Shown here: in pieces, positions 48,933 to 55,561 of the stretch
Position numbering within the stretch: the first letter of the stretch is position 1
How the letters are laid out: every line of letters begins with the position of its first letter
Sequence record: MZ417521
DNA length: 64,000 bases
Reading direction: 5' to 3' (one strand)
Source of the DNA: Escherichia phage 132
Made by a program: the position numbers and the translations under genes
The notes under the pieces: model-generated
What the model was told of the DNA's origin: nothing
The model's input: the letters and a program-made list of their open reading frames with translations, nothing else
The model's database searches: none

Positions 48933-50051
48933 ATGGAAAAATTTATGGCAGAGTTTGGACAAGGATATGTCCAAACGCCATTTTTATCGGAAAGCAATTC
49001 AGTAAGATATAAAATAAGTATAGCGGGTTCTTGCCCGCTTTCTACTGCAGAAGGACCATACGTTAAATTTCAGGATAATCCTGTTGGAAGTCAAACATTT
49101 AGCGCAGGACTTCATTTAAGAGTTTTTGACCCTTCTACAGGAGCATTAGTTGATAGTAAGTCATATGCTTTTTCGGCTTCAAATGATACTACATCAGCTG
49201 CTTTTGTTGGTTTCATGAACTCTTTGACGAATAATAGACTTGTTGCTATATTAACTAACGGAAAAGTTAATTTTCCTCCTGAGGTAGTATCTTGGATAAG
49301 AACCGCAGGAACGTCTGCTTTTCCATCTGATTCTGTATTGTCAAGATTTGACGTATCATATGCTGCCTTTTATACTTCTTCTAAAAGAGCTATTGCATTG
49401 GAACATGTTAAACTAAGTAATAGAAAAAGCACAGATGACTATCAAACTATTTTAGATGTTGTATTTGATAGTTTAGAAGACGTCGGAGCTACAGGATTTC
49501 CTAAAAGAACATATGAAAGTGTCGAGCAATTTATGTCAGCAGTTGGTGGAACTAATAACGAAATTGCGCGATTACCAACTTCAGCTGCTATAAGTAAACT
49601 ATCTGATTATAATTTAATTCCTGGTGATGTTCTTTATCTTAAAGCACAGTTATATGCTGATGCCGATTTACTTGCGCTTGGAACTACAAATATATCTATC
49701 CGTTTTTATGATGAATCGAATGGATATATTTCTTCAACACACGCTGAGTTTACTGGTCAAGCTGGGTCATGGGAATTAAAGGAAGACTATGTAGTTGTTC
49801 CTGAAAATGCAGTAGGATTTACGATATATGCACAAAGAACTGCCCAAGCAGGTCAAGGAGGCATGAGAAATTTAAGCTTTTCTGAAGTATCAAGAAATGG
49901 CGGAATTTCAAAACCTGCTGAATTTGGCGTCAATGGTATTCGAGTTAATTATGTCTGTGAATCTGCTTCACCTCCAGATATAATGGTACTTCCTACACAA
50001 GCATCGTCTAAAACTGGTAAAGTGTTTGGACAAGAATTTAGAGAAGTTTAA
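48933..50051 (+). CDS. 35: Long tail fibre hinge connector gp35
   Basis: 372 aa. Confidence 0.93.
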   Translation: MEKFMAEFGQGYVQTPFLSESNSVRYKISIAGSCPLSTAEGPYVKFQDNPVGSQTFSAGLHLRVFDPSTGALVDSKSYAFSASNDTTSAAFVGFMNSLTNNRLVAILTNGKVNFPPEVVSWIRTAGTSAFPSDSVLSRFDVSYAAFYTSSKRAIALEHVKLSNRKSTDDYQTILDVVFDSLEDVGATGFPKRTYESVEQFMSAVGGTNNEIARLPTSAAISKLSDYNLIPGDVLYLKAQLYADADLLALGTTNISIRFYDESNGYISSTHAEFTGQAGSWELKEDYVVVPENAVGFTIYAQRTAQAGQGGMRNLSFSEVSRNGGISKPAEFGVNGIRVNYVCESASPPDIMVLPTQASSKTGKVFGQEFREV

Positions 50052-50114: not shown

Positions 50115-50804
50115 ATGGCTGATTTAAAAGTAGGTTCAACAACTGGAGGCTCTGTCATTTGGCATCAAGGAAATTTTCCATTGAATCCAGCCGGTGACGA
50201 TGTACTCTATAAATCATTTAAAATATATTCAGAATACAATAAACCACAGGCAACTGATAACGATTTCGTTTCTAAAGCTAATGGTGGCACAAAGTCTCAA
50301 GGTTTCCAAAAAGAAGTAGAATTTAAAGAAGGCGTTAAGATTTCTGCAACGTTTTCTGGCGGTTCAGACCTGAATGGGTTATATTCTGGCAATGGAGATG
50401 GAGCTTCCAGAGAAAAAGCTAACATGGATTTACGTTCATGGTACGGCATTGGTATTTGGAACACATGCACAAGCGATGGGATCCAGGGACGCACAATCTG
50501 GTTTAATGCCAGGAGTGGTAAAGTTGAAACAGTTGGCAATATTGTTTCTGGCCAACAAGTTATTTCTAATGCTTCAGTACCGACCGGCCCAGCACACTTA
50601 ACTCGCAAAGATTATGTCGATGGAGCAATAAATATTGTTACAGCAAACGCAAACTCTAGAGTATTACGCTCTGGAGATACTATGACAGGAAATTTAACTG
50701 CGCCAAACCTTTTTTCACAGAATCCTGCATCTCAACCCTCGCATGTTCCACGATTTGATCAAATTGTTATTAAGGATTCTGTTCAAGATTTCGGCTATTA
50801 TTAA
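50115..50804 (+). CDS. 36: Long tail fibre distal connector gp36
   Basis: 229 aa. Confidence 0.92.
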   Translation: MADLKVGSTTGGSVIWHQGNFPLNPAGDDVLYKSFKIYSEYNKPQATDNDFVSKANGGTKSQGFQKEVEFKEGVKISATFSGGSDLNGLYSGNGDGASREKANMDLRSWYGIGIWNTCTSDGIQGRTIWFNARSGKVETVGNIVSGQQVISNASVPTGPAHLTRKDYVDGAINIVTANANSRVLRSGDTMTGNLTAPNLFSQNPASQPSHVPRFDQIVIKDSVQDFGYY

Positions 50805-50812
50805 GAGGACTT

Positions 50813-53800
50813 ATGGCTACTTTAAAACAAATACAATTTAAAAGAAGCAAAACCGCAGGAGCACGTCCTGCCGCTTCAGTATTAGCCGAAGGTGAATTGG
50901 CTATAAACTTAAAAGACCGTGTACTTTTTACTAAAGACGATCAAGGGAATATCATTGATCTGGGTTTTGCTAAGGGTGGTAGTATTGACGGGAATGTTAT
51001 TCATATAGGAAACTATAATCAAACCGGTGATTATGCCCTGAAAGGTACTTTTACCCAAACAGGTAGTTATGCGGCATCCGGAAGTATAACAGCAAATGGT
51101 GATATTACTGCAAAAACCCGTTTAATGACAGATAATGGTGAAGTTCTTGTACGAGGTACAGGAACCACTCATGTTCGATTCCAGGATTTGGCTGATGCAC
51201 GTGAAAGAGGCATAATTTATTCACAATCACGCCCAGGAAATACCAAGCAAATCTTGAACGTTCGCGTCCAGGATTACGCTAATTCAACATCTAATATTTT
51301 TGCATTCAACGGTGATGGTTTATTTTATGCCCCATCTATTTCCGGCGGAACATCAGTAAAATCTCCAGTAATTTATACCAATACTGTTAATACAGACAGT
51401 AAGAATATTGGCGATTACGATATATCTTCATTAGCAAATAATAATTCTGACACAGATAAAAACTATTTGCGCATTGTACGTACCGATCCAGCGGCCGCAA
51501 TGCTCCATGAAATTTGCGAAAATAACGGCATAAGTTGGTATTCGGGTTCGACTCCAACTGAGTATATGTTGTCATTTTCTTATTCTGGTGGGCTTCAAGC
51601 AGGCCATTCAATTGCAGTAGGTATGGAATCAATGCCTATGACATATTCAGCCTTAGGTAAAGGTTCTATTGCTCTTGGCGATAATGATACCGGGCTAAAA
51701 TGGCATCAGGATGGATATTTCTATACAGTAAACAACGGAACAAGAACTTTCATCTATGGTCCAGGAGAAACGCAAAGCCTTAGAAAAATGGTTATGGCTT
51801 ATTCTCCAGATGGGCTTCTTATGACAACGCCACCGACAGAAAACTATGCTTTGGCTACTGTTGTTACTTACCATGATAATAACGCGTTTGGAGATGGTCA
51901 GACTCTTTTAGGATATTACCAAGGTGGTAATTATCATCATTATTTCCGCGGTAAGGGTACTACAAACATTAATACTCACGGCGGTTTATTAGTTACTCCA
52001 GGCAATATTGACGTTATTGGTGGTTCGGTTAATATTGATGGTCGTAATAATGCTTCTACTCTGATGTTTAGAGGTAACACAACTGGTAGCAGTTCAGTTG
52101 ATAATATGACAATTTCTGTATGGGGTAATACGTTTACTAATCCTAGTGTAGGTAATCGTAAAAACGTCATGGAAATTTCTGATGCAACTAGTTGGATGAG
52201 CTATATTCAAAGACTTACAACAGGTGAAGTAGAAATGAACGTTAACGGTTCATTTGAATCATCTGGTGTTACTGCTGGACATAGAGGAGTTCACACAACA
52301 GGTGAAATTTCATCTGGAGCAGTGAATGCGCTTCGCATTTGGAATGCAGATTATGGAGTCATTTTCCGTCGTTCAGAAAACAGTCTTCATATTATTCCGA
52401 CTGCTTACGGTGAAGGTAAAAATGGAAATATCGGTCCACTTCGCCCGTTCCGTATGGACCTTGATACAGGTAAAGTAAGTATTCCTAATATGGATACTAC
52501 TAATTTGACTATGAACTCAAATGGTTCTATTAAATTTACTGGTCATGGTAATGGTACCGAGCTGTATATTAATCAGTATGGGCAAGCGGCACCGATTTAT
52601 CAAGAAATTAATAATGATTCCGCTTCTGCTTATATTCCAATTATAAAACAGAAATACTTAAATGGCGGTATAATGTGGTCTATGGGAACAGAACTTAATT
52701 CCGGTGATTTTGTAATCCATAGAATTAATGCCGCCGGTGATGAAAACCAAATTATTAAATTTGATAGTAACTGCGTTCCGCATTTCCCGGATAACGTGCT
52801 GGTTGGCGGTGATATTAACATGAAAGGCGCGATGACTTTTGACGCCGGACGTTTAGGATCACGAGATTATTTTAAATTTAACCATTGGGGTGATAGTAAT
52901 AATGCTCGTGATAACATCATCCAGTTAGAAGATAGTCAAGGCGCCCATTTTTCCACTGAACGTACTTTAGCGACTGGTGCAATTAAAACTCGTTTCTTTG
53001 GCGAAACATTCACTGATGGTACATTATACCTAAATCAGATGAATAATAGCTCTGAACGATTCCATATCAATAATTGGGGAAATTCAGAAGTTGGTCGCGC
53101 GGCAGTGATGGAAGTCGGTGATTCCAAAGGTTATCACTTCTATACGGAACGCAGGACAGATAACAGTTTGACGTTTGATGTTGCTGGCGATTTTACTGTG
53201 CATGGATCTTCCGGGATTACTATCAAAACCTCTACTGGTGCTCGCCATGTTTGGTTTAGAGGTGATAGCGATATAGAAAAGGCTGTTATTTGGGCGACCA
53301 ATGATGGTATTTTACATATACGAAATAATTTTGGGGGTTCATTTAGTCATCACTTCCAGGGCGCAATGATTAAAGCGGGAGAGCGTGTTCCTTATGCCGG
53401 AGATCAAGGGCTTATTCGCGGTGAAGTTTCTGGTGGTGCTTATGTGGATTGGAGAGGCCGCCCTGCTGGTTTGTTGCTTGACTGTCAACAAAGCGTTGAT
53501 AGTGCTCATGCTATTTGGAAAGCGGTTGATTGGGGGCGTAACTACATCGCTGCTCTGGACGTTCATATGCCCGGTAATAGTAATAATACTGCAGCAGCGG
53601 TTCTCCATGTTCAGTCTGCTGATTATCAATTCCATGCAAGTGGAGAATTTCATGCCACTGGTAACGGAAGCTTTAACGATGTGTATATTCGTTCTGACCG
53701 TCGCCTTAAAGACAATATAGAAGATTATACAGGAAATGCAACTGATTTAATCGGTAAACTGAAAGTTAAAACCTACGATAAAGTTAAATCATTATCCGAC

Positions 53801-54046
53801 CGTGAAATTATCGGTCATGAGATCGGCATTATCGCACAGGATTTACAAGAAATATTACCAGAAGCGATTAATATTTCGAAAATTGGCAATCTTGATAAAC
53901 CAGACGAAGTTCTGACAATTTCTAACTCTGCTGTGAATGCTCTTTTAATTAAGGCCATTCAGGAAATGAGTGAAGAAATTAAAGAATTGAAAACGCCTTT
54001 CTTCACTAAAATTGCTCGCAAAATTGGTAAATACTTTAAATTCTAA
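50813..54046 (+). CDS. 37: Long tail fibre distal subunit gp37 with C-terminal autoproteolytic chaperone-type domain
   Basis: 1077 aa; C-terminal YIRSDRRLKDNIEDY matches the S-D-x-x-x-K self-cleavage signature of intramolecular chaperone domains. Confidence 0.93.
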   Translation: MATLKQIQFKRSKTAGARPAASVLAEGELAINLKDRVLFTKDDQGNIIDLGFAKGGSIDGNVIHIGNYNQTGDYALKGTFTQTGSYAASGSITANGDITAKTRLMTDNGEVLVRGTGTTHVRFQDLADARERGIIYSQSRPGNTKQILNVRVQDYANSTSNIFAFNGDGLFYAPSISGGTSVKSPVIYTNTVNTDSKNIGDYDISSLANNNSDTDKNYLRIVRTDPAAAMLHEICENNGISWYSGSTPTEYMLSFSYSGGLQAGHSIAVGMESMPMTYSALGKGSIALGDNDTGLKWHQDGYFYTVNNGTRTFIYGPGETQSLRKMVMAYSPDGLLMTTPPTENYALATVVTYHDNNAFGDGQTLLGYYQGGNYHHYFRGKGTTNINTHGGLLVTPGNIDVIGGSVNIDGRNNASTLMFRGNTTGSSSVDNMTISVWGNTFTNPSVGNRKNVMEISDATSWMSYIQRLTTGEVEMNVNGSFESSGVTAGHRGVHTTGEISSGAVNALRIWNADYGVIFRRSENSLHIIPTAYGEGKNGNIGPLRPFRMDLDTGKVSIPNMDTTNLTMNSNGSIKFTGHGNGTELYINQYGQAAPIYQEINNDSASAYIPIIKQKYLNGGIMWSMGTELNSGDFVIHRINAAGDENQIIKFDSNCVPHFPDNVLVGGDINMKGAMTFDAGRLGSRDYFKFNHWGDSNNARDNIIQLEDSQGAHFSTERTLATGAIKTRFFGETFTDGTLYLNQMNNSSERFHINNWGNSEVGRAAVMEVGDSKGYHFYTERRTDNSLTFDVAGDFTVHGSSGITIKTSTGARHVWFRGDSDIEKAVIWATNDGILHIRNNFGGSFSHHFQGAMIKAGERVPYAGDQGLIRGEVSGGAYVDWRGRPAGLLLDCQQSVDSAHAIWKAVDWGRNYIAALDVHMPGNSNNTAAAVLHVQSADYQFHASGEFHATGNGSFNDVYIRSDRRLKDNIEDYTGNATDLIGKLKVKTYDKVKSLSDREIIGHEIGIIAQDLQEILPEAINISKIGNLDKPDEVLTISNSAVNALLIKAIQEMSEEIKELKTPFFTKIARKIGKYFKF

Positions 54047-54052
54047 TAACAA

Positions 54053-54065
54053 GGGGCATTGCCCC
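54053..54065 (+). terminator. Hairpin GGGGC-ATT-GCCCC after gene 37
   Basis: GC stem followed by ttt. Confidence 0.45.
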
Positions 54066-54079
54066 TTTGGAGATAAATT

Positions 54080-54859
54080 ATGGCAGTAGTTGGTGTTCCT
54101 GGTTGGATTGGAAGTTCATCCGTAAATGAAACAGGACAACGATGGATGAGTCAAGCGGCTGGTCAATTAAGATTGGGTGTTCCTTGCTGGATGAGTCAAT
54201 TTGCAGGACGCTCAAGAGAAATTATTCACACACTTGGAGCAGACCATAACTTCAATGGTCAATGGTTCCGAGATAGATGTTTTGAGGCAGGTAGTGCACC
54301 TATAGTGTTTAATATCACTGGAAATTTAGTATCATATAGTAAAGATGTTCCATTATTCTTTATGTATGGCGATACACCAAATGAATATGTTACTTTGAAT
54401 ATTCATGGTGGAGTTCATATGTGGGGACGAGGTGGTAACGGTACTGTAAATGGAAACCCAGGCACAAATGGCGGCGATGTAATCCAAAATGATATCGGCG
54501 GAAGACTTCGTATTTGGAACTATGGCGTTATTGCATCAGGCGGCGGTGGTGGTGGTGCAGTGTCATTACAGAATAGCTGGGCGCCAAATGCTACAGCAGG
54601 TGGCGGTGGTGGTAGACCATTTGGCATCGGCGGAGGCGGCGTTAATTGGCCGGGTGGTAATGCTAGTTATGACGCCCCGGGCGGTGCCGGTTACACTTCC
54701 CAATTCGGCGGAGGCAATGGCGGTGATGCTGGAGGTCGGGGCGGAGATGGATGGGGTAATCACTTATCTAGATCTGGCGGTGGTGCTCCTGGCAGAGCAG
54801 TATTCGGTTCTTCACCATCATGGGGCGCTACAGGCACGATCTACGGCTCCTGGATTTAA
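54080..54859 (+). CDS. 38: gp38 receptor-binding adhesin, T2-type with glycine-rich motifs
   Basis: 259 aa; four Gly-rich runs ([49 protein letters not shown]) separating variable segments. Confidence 0.88.
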
Positions 54860-54877
54860 ACGATAATACCTCTCAGT

Positions 54878-54885
54878 TATAAATA
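54878..54885 (+). promoter_or_regulatory. Late promoter TATAAATA for holin t
   Basis: Exact TATAAATA 20 nt upstream of t ATG; GGAGG RBS. Confidence 0.65.
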
Positions 54886-54904
54886 TTGATAAATTGGAGG
54901 TAAT

Positions 54905-55561
54905 ATGGCAGCACCTAGAATATCATTTTCGCCCTCTGGTATTCTGTTTGGTGTTCTAGATCGCTTGTTCAAAGATAACGCTACCGGGAAAGTTCTTGCT
55001 TCCCGAGTAGCTGTCGTAATTCTTTTATTTATGATGGCGATTGTTTGGTATAGGGGAGATAGTTTCTTTGAGTACTATAAGCAATCAAAGTATGAAACAT
55101 ACAGTGAAATTATTGAAAAGGAAAGAAATGCACGCTTTGAATCTGTCGCCCTGGAACAACTCCAGATAGTTCATATATCATCTGAGGCAGACTTTAGCGC
55201 GGTATATTCTTTCCGCCCTAAAAACTTAAACTATTTTGTTGATATTATAGCATATGAAGGAAAATTACCTTCAACAATAAGCGAAAAATCACTTGGAGGA
55301 TATCCTGTTGATAAAACTATGGATGAATATACAGTTCATTTAAATGGACGTCATTATTATTCTGATTCAAAATTTGCTTTTTTACCAACTAAAAAGCCTA
55401 CTCCCGAAATAAACTACATGTACAGTTGTCCATATTTTAATTTGGATAATATCTATGCTGGAACGATAACCATGTACTGGTATAGAAATGATCATATAAG
55501 TAATGACCGCCTTGAATCAATATGTGCTCAGGCGGCCAGAATATTAGGAAGGGCTAAATAA
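54905..55561 (+). CDS. t: Holin T
   Basis: 218 aa; single TM LASRVAVVILLFMMAIVWY with large periplasmic domain. Confidence 0.95.
   Translation: MAAPRISFSPSGILFGVLDRLFKDNATGKVLASRVAVVILLFMMAIVWYRGDSFFEYYKQSKYETYSEIIEKERNARFESVALEQLQIVHISSEADFSAVYSFRPKNLNYFVDIIAYEGKLPSTISEKSLGGYPVDKTMDEYTVHLNGRHYYSDSKFAFLPTKKPTPEINYMYSCPYFNLDNIYAGTITMYWYRNDHISNDRLESICAQAARILGRAK

Follow-up and report, generated by a model that had tools for sequence, protein, structure and literature searches.

In the T-even phages, gp38 is the main determinant of the outer-membrane protein that is used, and by fixing this protein it shapes both host range and the route of bacterial resistance. In phage S16, the last ~113 residues of gp37 are autocleaved between the serines of DLNVS^SDRRIKK, by which the docking face for gp38 is exposed, while DVYIR^SDGRLK has been predicted as the cut in the fPS phages (PMC7917993). 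The S16 structure shows three tryptophans of gp38 as prongs inserted into three pockets of the gp37 trimer, and its authors counted ten polyglycine-II helices in gp38 (PMC6851490). At the sequence level, Trojet et al. (PMC3157838) and Lutz et al. (PMC12032242) have published a scheme in which five glycine-rich motifs (GRMs) flank four hypervariable segments (HVSs) in gp38. The Ser-Lys dyad of the endosialidase-type chaperones is known to be catalytic in endoNF (S911/K916) and in MyRF (S587/K592) (PMC8326128). Genes 37 and 38 of Escherichia phage 132 (sequence record MZ417521; the window, i.e. the whole stretch of 64,000 nt analysed here) very probably encode a long-tail-fibre tip of T2/T6/S16 type that recognises the receptor, with a self-cleaving gp37, a gp38 adhesin and binding to OmpF in the manner proposed below. 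This reading is carried by the arrangement of domains, the conservation of catalytic and docking residues, the similarity in fold, the identity with OmpF-typed adhesins and the mosaic ancestry of the locus.

Gene 37, the long tail fibre distal subunit, is the open reading frame (ORF) at 50813-54046 (+) and codes for 1077 amino acids (aa), with a C-terminal end reading ...NDVYIRSDRRLKDNIEDY... / ...GSFNDVYIRSDRRLKDNIEDYTGN... Its product matches PHROG 1699 'long tail fiber protein distal subunit' (expect value, E, of 0) and is identical to QWY90617.1, a 'putative long tail fiber protein' of Escherichia phage 132. Gene 38, identified as the tail-fibre tip adhesin, is the ORF at 54080-54859 (+), separated from gene 37 by a 33-nt spacer, and its product of 259 aa is identical to QWY90618.1, the 'putative receptor-recognizing protein' of the same phage. 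The interval given for the module in the initial annotation, 53650-54859, starts 43 nt upstream of the serine codon of the gp37 motif described below and has as its end the final base of the stop codon of gene 38. The gene order 37 - 38 - holin t is common to the window, Bas46, SG1, G2540, FL33, Bas47, T2, T6 and S16.

The last 117 residues of gp37 (aa 961-1077; 53693-54043, +) are identified as an intramolecular chaperone of the Peptidase_S74 type, predicted to be released after trimerisation, as Pfam PF13884 ('chaperone of endosialidase') matches aa 961-1018 (E 5.7e-14, 52.6 bits, cutoff 22). The motif S-D-x-x-x-K (x represents any amino acid) claimed for this region by the initial annotation is indeed found as S-D-R-R-L-K (aa 961-966; 53693-53710, +), where the catalytic-type Ser961 (codon 53693-53695) and Lys966 (codon 53708-53710) are five residues apart. 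The residues S961, D962, R964, L965, K966 and N968 (SDxRLKxN) are invariant in 21 homologues, the lowest identity being 31% in BLASTP and 33% in the alignment, for a sample drawn from the 28 mostly partial proteins that a search with the chaperone region returned and not from the wider S74 family. By family alignment S961/K966 are equivalent to S911/K916 of endoNF, and a catalytic role of the predicted dyad is taken from endoNF and MyRF. An SDxxxK-type motif lies 99-117 residues from the gp37 C-terminus in T2, T6, S16, SG1, FL33, G2540 and Bas46, while the motif pattern search found no S74 motif in T4 gp37 and missed Bas47 only because its aligned site reads SDIRCK. The gp37 C-terminus also aligns with the gp37 chain of S16 (6f45_A; PDB 6F45) across the SDRRIKK site. 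The window gp37 reads DVYIR^SDRRLK, in which DVYIR aligns with DLNVS of S16 and equals the DVYIR of the fPS phages, which places the predicted scissile bond at Arg960|Ser961; this DVYIR|SD context is common to the window, G2540, T6, T2, Bas47 and the fPS phages. Autocleavage at this bond would leave DVYIR (aa 956-960; 53678-53692, +) as the last five residues of mature gp37 and as the proposed docking face for gp38, by homology to S16 and the fPS phages.

The alignment of this C-terminus to chaperone domains, on which the initial annotation depended, extends beyond Pfam. A six-phage profile of the chaperone region matched 6f45_A (1e-48), the ICA domain of MyRF (7dc3; 7e-9) and the tail-fibre chain 8jov (5.5e-7). 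The AlphaFold2 (AF2) model of the domain, with a mean predicted local distance difference test score (pLDDT) of 78, comprises beta hairpins and a long C-terminal helix (strands 45-96, helix 98-134), and its significant PDB neighbours in Foldseek are limited to 7dc3 (E 4e-6), the GA-1 gp12 chaperone 3gud (E 8e-3, prob 1.0) and the endoNF chaperone 3gw6 (prob 0.96-0.99).

gp38 is spanned over its entire length by two Pfam families, GP38 (PF05268; E 3.8e-83, 279.1 bits, cutoff 25) and Gp38_N (PF21721, aa 1-42; E 1.5e-19, 70.1 bits, cutoff 25), and also matches PHROG 2056 (E 9e-110). With the Peptidase_S74 match of gp37, the two Pfam scores exclude a chance resemblance. In sequence it matches both solved adhesins, the receptor-binding domain of PP01 (9v85; 3e-73) and S16 gp38 (6f45_D; 6e-48). 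The AF2 model of gp38, for which database homologues served as the alignment (pLDDT 86, predicted template modelling score 0.80), resembles the same two structures: Foldseek aligned it with 9v85_C of PP01 at E 3e-26 (template modelling (TM) score 0.90 on the target, root-mean-square deviation 2.0 A, 64% identity over the aligned part) and with 6f45_D of S16 at E 6e-21 (TM score 0.82 on the target), while apart from these two no fold in the PDB scored better than E ~3. The modelled fold is thus a beta-helix followed by a polyglycine-II sandwich. The protein contains 65 glycines among its 259 residues, 48 of which fall within aa 115-245. The description of gp38 as a T2/T6-type adhesin holds for the family profiles and for both solved adhesin structures; it needs amending in that gp38 is only 51% identical to that of T2 and belongs to the RB51/RB69/Bas47 group.

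The attachment domain at the N-terminus of gp38 (aa 1-45; 54080-54214, +), recognised by Gp38_N and by alignment, is of the SG1/T6 (Tequatrovirus) type and contains W9, W22 and W37, all three unchanged in T2, T6, S16 and five others. It is followed by the first part of the beta-helix domain (aa 46-115; 54215-54424, +), modelled as strands over aa 48-115 with a pLDDT >90. The glycine-rich receptor-binding region (aa 116-241; 54425-54802, +) was delimited by column entropy and glycine fraction over 81 homologues and by superposition on PP01 and S16, and contains five GRMs (GRM1, aa 116-121; GRM2, 154-159; GRM3, 174-182; GRM4, 210-222; GRM5, 233-241) flanking four HVSs as in the published scheme, by which the 'four glycine-rich motifs' counted at first prove to be a small miscount. 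The entropy profile located the variable segments between these motifs. The variable core of HVS1 (aa 122-130; 54443-54469, +) shows high entropy and indels after aa 124, 126 and 129, and HVS2 (aa 160-173; 54557-54598, +) shows high entropy with the lowest model confidence at aa 167-169. HVS3 (aa 183-209; 54626-54706, +), delimited by entropy and by alignment with RB51, includes Q208 (codon CAA, 54701-54703), and HVS4 (aa 223-232; 54746-54775, +) shows high entropy and indels after aa 225. Two out-of-frame ORFs over gene 38, at 54489-54866 (+, 125 aa) and 54566-54763 (-, 65 aa), are regarded as by-products without support as genes, as their runs of V, A and L are expected from GGN-rich codons read out of frame; the small antisense ORFs are likewise regarded as unsupported by-products of GGN codon runs.

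Taken together with the described systems, the module would work as follows. The C-terminal 117 residues of the 1077-aa gp37 precursor would act as an intramolecular chaperone nucleating trimerisation of the beta-helical fibre, and after correct folding of the trimer the Ser961/Lys966 dyad would cut Arg960|Ser961 and the chaperone would depart. The cut would expose a flat hydrophobic gp37 tip ending in ...DVYIR, which one gp38 monomer would cap, its W9, W22 and W37 entering three symmetry-related pockets, so that gp37 and gp38 would be docked 3:1. The remainder of gp38 would form a short beta-helix and a polyglycine-II sandwich made of the glycine-rich motifs, and the variable loops at its distal end would bind an outer-membrane porin, predicted to be OmpF.

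This prediction is drawn from the relationship of gp38 to typed adhesins. The protein is 51% identical to gp38 of T2, 71% to T6, 50% to S16 and 74% to SG1; the values rise to 99% for Bas46 and G2540 (99.2% for Bas46, one of four tied closest relatives), 98.5% for fPS-2, 97% for FL33, 96.5% for fPS-90 and 94% for Bas47, while aa 83-259 are 100% identical to RB51 gp38. HVS1, HVS2 and HVS4 are identical in Bas46, G2540, FL33 and Bas47, and over the whole GRM/HVS region the differences from these four are limited to I183L, R220W (Bas47) and a five-residue patch in HVS3 (FL33). Dependence on OmpF has been shown experimentally for RB51, RB69 and SV76 (PMC3157838), and for RB51 was found again by genome-wide screens (bioRxiv 10.64898/2026.04.02.716166, a preprint); it has also been demonstrated for Bas47, with complementation (PMC8594841), for FL31, FL33 and FL34 (PMC12032242), and for fPS-2 and fPS-90, again with complementation (PMC7917993). 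By sequence, the gp38 of phage 132 thus falls into the RB51/RB69/Bas47/FL33/fPS-2 OmpF allele group. In RB51 gp38 the substitution Q206L changes the receptor from OmpF to OmpW, and the reverse change restores OmpF, according to the same 2026 preprint (not peer reviewed; bioRxiv 10.64898/2026.04.02.716166). The glutamine is kept at this switch position in the window, where Q208 aligns with Q206 of RB51. Since RB51 depends on OmpF and its receptor-binding part does not differ from the one here, OmpF is predicted with good confidence to be the primary receptor of phage 132.

If the prediction is true, resistance would be expected through loss or down-regulation of ompF, and the known single-residue route to OmpW would be indicated for the adhesin of phage 132 as well. 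Such a prediction is useful for the choice of phages in a cocktail or for engineering, a practical value that comes without new biology. As a separate observation, the GenBank gp38 sequences of RB51 and RB68 are identical, although the 2026 preprint gives RB68 a Q206L difference; the RB68 variant of the preprint must therefore be a re-sequenced stock.

A rather different role for gp38 is suggested by several database records, in which its close homologues are annotated as 'long tail fiber assembly chaperone/catalyst'; gp38 would then merely assist assembly as in T4, and gp37 would carry the receptor-binding tip. These names are carried over from T4, and the lengths of the two proteins differ as first stated (259 aa here, 183 aa in T4). 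In agreement with the initial annotation, gp38 can not be aligned to T4 gp38, the best BLASTP match having E 2.1 over 14 residues, for which reason the T4-type assembly-chaperone reading of this protein is rejected. Moreover, gp38 has adhesin Pfam families and the adhesin fold, gp37 has no T4-type C-terminal needle but ends in a removable S74 domain, and a swap of gp38 changes the receptor in related phages (bioRxiv 10.64898/2026.04.02.716166), all of which makes an assembly-only role extremely improbable. It is also very unlikely, if slightly less so, that the C-terminal domain of gp37 is an inactive S74 relic that stays in the mature fibre while gp38 binds elsewhere. Such a relic would fit with the fact that cleavage of gp37 is here deduced from homology and not observed directly, and with gp37 residues upstream of the cleavage site that are unlike S16 except for the last strand. 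Against it stand the strict conservation of the Ser-Lys dyad and its neighbouring residues, the DVYIR|SD context common to so many relatives, and the presence of the motif in T2 gp37 at a similar distance from the C-terminus. Release of the domain from gp37 and an adhesin function of gp38 hence remain the preferred prediction.

Several points weigh against the proposed mechanism and its receptor. Autoproteolysis, the stoichiometry of gp38 to gp37 and the use of the receptor are all predicted from homology, and the chaperone-domain model is that of a monomer of moderate confidence, whose first 15 residues are unreliable. The architecture could be as described and the primary receptor nevertheless be other than OmpF (e.g. 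OmpW, OmpC, Tsx, OmpA or FadL), or OmpF could be one of several that are required. The single substitution that redirects RB51 to OmpW demonstrates that small differences in this adhesin class can matter, and RB69, RB51 and SV76 have been reported to need FhuA and the full lipopolysaccharide (LPS) core as well (PMC3157838), while an effect of tolC has been reported for FL31/33/34 (PMC12032242), so that 'OmpF alone' may be too simple. For Bas46 (ChristianSchoenbein), no stated receptor was found in the text of the BASEL paper or by literature search, and the OmpF call therefore rests on RB51, RB69, Bas47 and the FL and fPS phages. A different or additional primary receptor is still considered unlikely, as the receptor-binding part in the window is without any difference from RB51, Q208 included, as five independent phage sets with this gp38 allele type depend on OmpF, and as the adhesins typed to Tsx, to FadL/OmpF (T2) and to OmpC (S16) are only 50-71% identical to the window gp38. 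The tolC effect of the FL phages is likely to be indirect, via porin expression, and a requirement for the LPS core or for a secondary receptor is possible in phage 132, by analogy with these relatives. OmpF thus stands as the predicted primary receptor.

The origin of gene 38 was traced by mosaic analysis, in which identity to five relatives was calculated in 100-nt windows and combined with mismatch maps, the breakpoints being taken from simple identity windows. The closest backbone relative among those compared is SG1, to which 53300-54320, made up of the final ~700 nt of gene 37 plus the opening third of gene 38, is 86-100% identical. From ~54400 the identity of the receptor-binding part of gene 38 with SG1 falls to 46-64%, whereas the flanks remain 95-100% identical, which agrees with the earlier expectation of a variable part that sets otherwise near-identical phages apart. 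The region ~54160-54860 is 92-100% identical to Bas46, G2540, Bas47 and FL33, except for one 86% window at the HVS3 patch of FL33, while from 54905 holin t is 97-100% identical to SG1/FL33 versus 64-77% to the Mosigvirus phages. With FL33 the window is identical base for base over ~460 nt from 54684 and 96-100% identical through the holin. The 5' crossover zone (~54160-54320) is placed by mismatch maps against SG1 and Bas46/G2540 in the conserved region coding for the first part of the beta-helix, upstream of GRM1 (nt 54425), and the 3' crossover zone (~54860-54916) at the junction of genes 38 and t. SG1-like flanks around a Mosigvirus-like receptor-binding part point to a cassette exchange that left the attachment domain paired with its cognate gp37 tip. 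Probably, phage 132 gained the entire OmpF-binding part of gene 38 in a single cassette, which phages of another genus, Mosigvirus (RB51, Bas46, Bas47), also carry, with the native attachment domain kept and the loops frozen within the class. With the crossovers in the beta-helix region and at the 38/t junction, the breakpoints do not lie at the GRMs, the proposed recombination hotspots.

The receptor-binding part differs from Bas46, G2540 and Bas47 by 21-25 nucleotides and by 0-2 amino acids, and its ratio of non-synonymous to synonymous substitution (dN/dS) is 0.03-0.06 against these three of the four relatives and 0.20 against FL33. These sequence comparisons point to strong purifying selection on gp38 within the OmpF class, where the 'hypervariable' loops differ from one receptor class to another but stay strongly constrained within a class. 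The FL33 patch in HVS3 comprises Y197L, D198T, A199S and G202S together with I183L, and it resembles the sequence of PP01/T2 at the same place, which indicates that shuffling at the level of segments occurs too.

The gene 37 shaft (50813-53300) is itself a patchwork, in which 51413-51650 is 84-89% identical to Bas46 and 50-64% to the other relatives, 52163-52300 is 98-100% identical to FL33 and Bas47 and 49-74% to SG1, and 51013-51350 and 52450-52750 are at most ~70% identical to any of the five relatives. Within the shaft, aa 447-546 (52151-52450) match Pfam Gp34_trimer, the trimerisation domain of the proximal subunit (E 2e-8, above the cutoff), which suggests a domain common to the proximal and distal half-fibres. 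A 303-aa protein from an E. coli assembly (P0050) combines Peptidase_S74 and both GP38 domains in a single chain, probably through read-through of genes 37 and 38 or as an artefact of annotation.

The surroundings of the module are the remainder of the T-even long-tail-fibre cluster. Upstream, the ORF at 48933-50051 is the PHROG 'long tail fiber protein proximal connector' in the gp35 position, and the ORF at 50115-50804 is Pfam Phage_T4_gp36; aa 59-127 of the gp35 hinge connector match Pfam ILEI (interleukin-like EMT inducer / FAM3-type; E 1.2e-7, 32.5 bits, cutoff 27), a family name that is surprising in a fibre protein of a phage. Downstream, holin gene t (54905-55561, +; Pfam Phage_holin_T, E 1.3e-116) marks the end of the exchanged cassette. 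The backbone of the genome is Tequatrovirus-like, since for the final 24 kb of the window the best matches reach 94-96% identity, while the collection of phage genomes contained no record at least 99% identical to the 1.5-kb module, its best full-length match being 90%.

The spacer holds an intercistronic stem-loop, AAGGGGC-AUU-GCCCCUU (54051-54067, +), which follows the stop of gene 37, precedes the Shine-Dalgarno sequence of gene 38 (GGAG, 54069-54072) and has a counterpart in all the phages compared, with a minimum free energy of -11 kcal/mol in the window and of -11 to -15 kcal/mol across phages. When each sequence was folded on its own, an equivalent hairpin with other stem and loop sequence was found in Bas46, Bas47, T2, T6 and S16, the loop being an AUU triloop in the window, UUCG in T2 and Bas47, and UACG in S16, while that of SG1 is weakened by a 1-nt deletion. 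The counterparts in the compared loci lie at L001 4462-4503, L005 4468-4503, L007 6051-6086, L008 8688-8725 and L009 6794-6826. On the MAFFT alignment of the spacers the hairpins are out of register, and RNAalifold gave a weak consensus. This GC-rich stem-loop may be an element of mRNA stability or of translational coupling. The box TATAAATA (54878-54885, +), which is presumably the -10 consensus of T4 late promoters, precedes the start codon of holin t by 20 nt and falls within the 3' junction zone. A scan for sigma-70 promoters and terminators around the module gave nothing exceeding the shuffled expectation, and a tRNA scan of the window found none.

Publications already cover the module together with its structure, the logic of its cleavage and the classes of its receptors, and GenBank contains exactly these two proteins under a correct functional annotation. 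By every feature examined in silico, the module falls into two known families, the S74 intramolecular chaperone for gp37 and the GP38 adhesin for gp38, and into the known OmpF allele group. The tail-fibre tip module of phage 132 is thus a correct but ordinary finding with nothing new. Among the systems described before, the nearest is the RB51/RB69 group of Mosigvirus OmpF adhesins, which also includes those of Bas46, Bas47, FL31/33/34, fPS-2/fPS-90, G2540 and phiC120 and has the same GRM/HVS layout and the same glutamine at the switch position. RB51 differs in the attachment domain (aa 1-45), which reads 'MAVTG--PWVGSSAVVNTGQNWMGGAAQRLRMGIPFWMSNMIGRS' in RB51 and is of the Tequatrovirus (SG1/T6) type in the window gp38, where it matches the SG1-type gp37 tip beneath. 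The best structural match to the window gp38 is the receptor-binding domain of PP01 gp38 (PDB 9V85), which binds OmpC of E. coli O157 via loops D and E (PMC12892980), and the sequences of the two diverge most in HVS3 and HVS4.

T2 and T6 have the same architecture, with SDxRLK of gp37 lying 99 (T2) and 113 (T6) residues from the end and a gp38 of the same family; besides the lower identity of their gp38 already given, they differ in the receptor, which is Tsx for T6 and FadL/OmpF for T2 (PMC8594841, PMC3157838). S16 (PDB 6F45) shares the gene order, an S74 chaperone with SDRR(I/L)K, the three-domain gp38, the three docking tryptophans and the polyglycine-II sandwich. Its gp38 is 50% and its chaperone region 28% identical to those of the window, there is no relationship between the gp37 shafts upstream of the last strand, and its receptor is Salmonella OmpC, unlike the OmpF predicted for phage 132. 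All that T4 has in common is the name of gene 38 and its place between genes 37 and t, as the 183-aa T4 gp38 is an assembly chaperone without sequence similarity to the window protein and T4 gp37 is without the S74 motif. The endosialidase-type chaperones (endoNF 3GW6, GA-1 gp12 3GUD, the T5 L-shaped fibre and MyRF ICA 7DC3; MEROPS/Pfam Peptidase_S74) contain the same Ser-x4-Lys dyad, belong to the same fold class and occupy the same extreme C-terminal position on a trimeric beta-helical fibre, while their identity to the window domain is 9-23% in structural alignments. Unlike in the endosialidase-type spikes, release of the domain here would open a site at which a second protein docks, and would not simply leave a stable spike.

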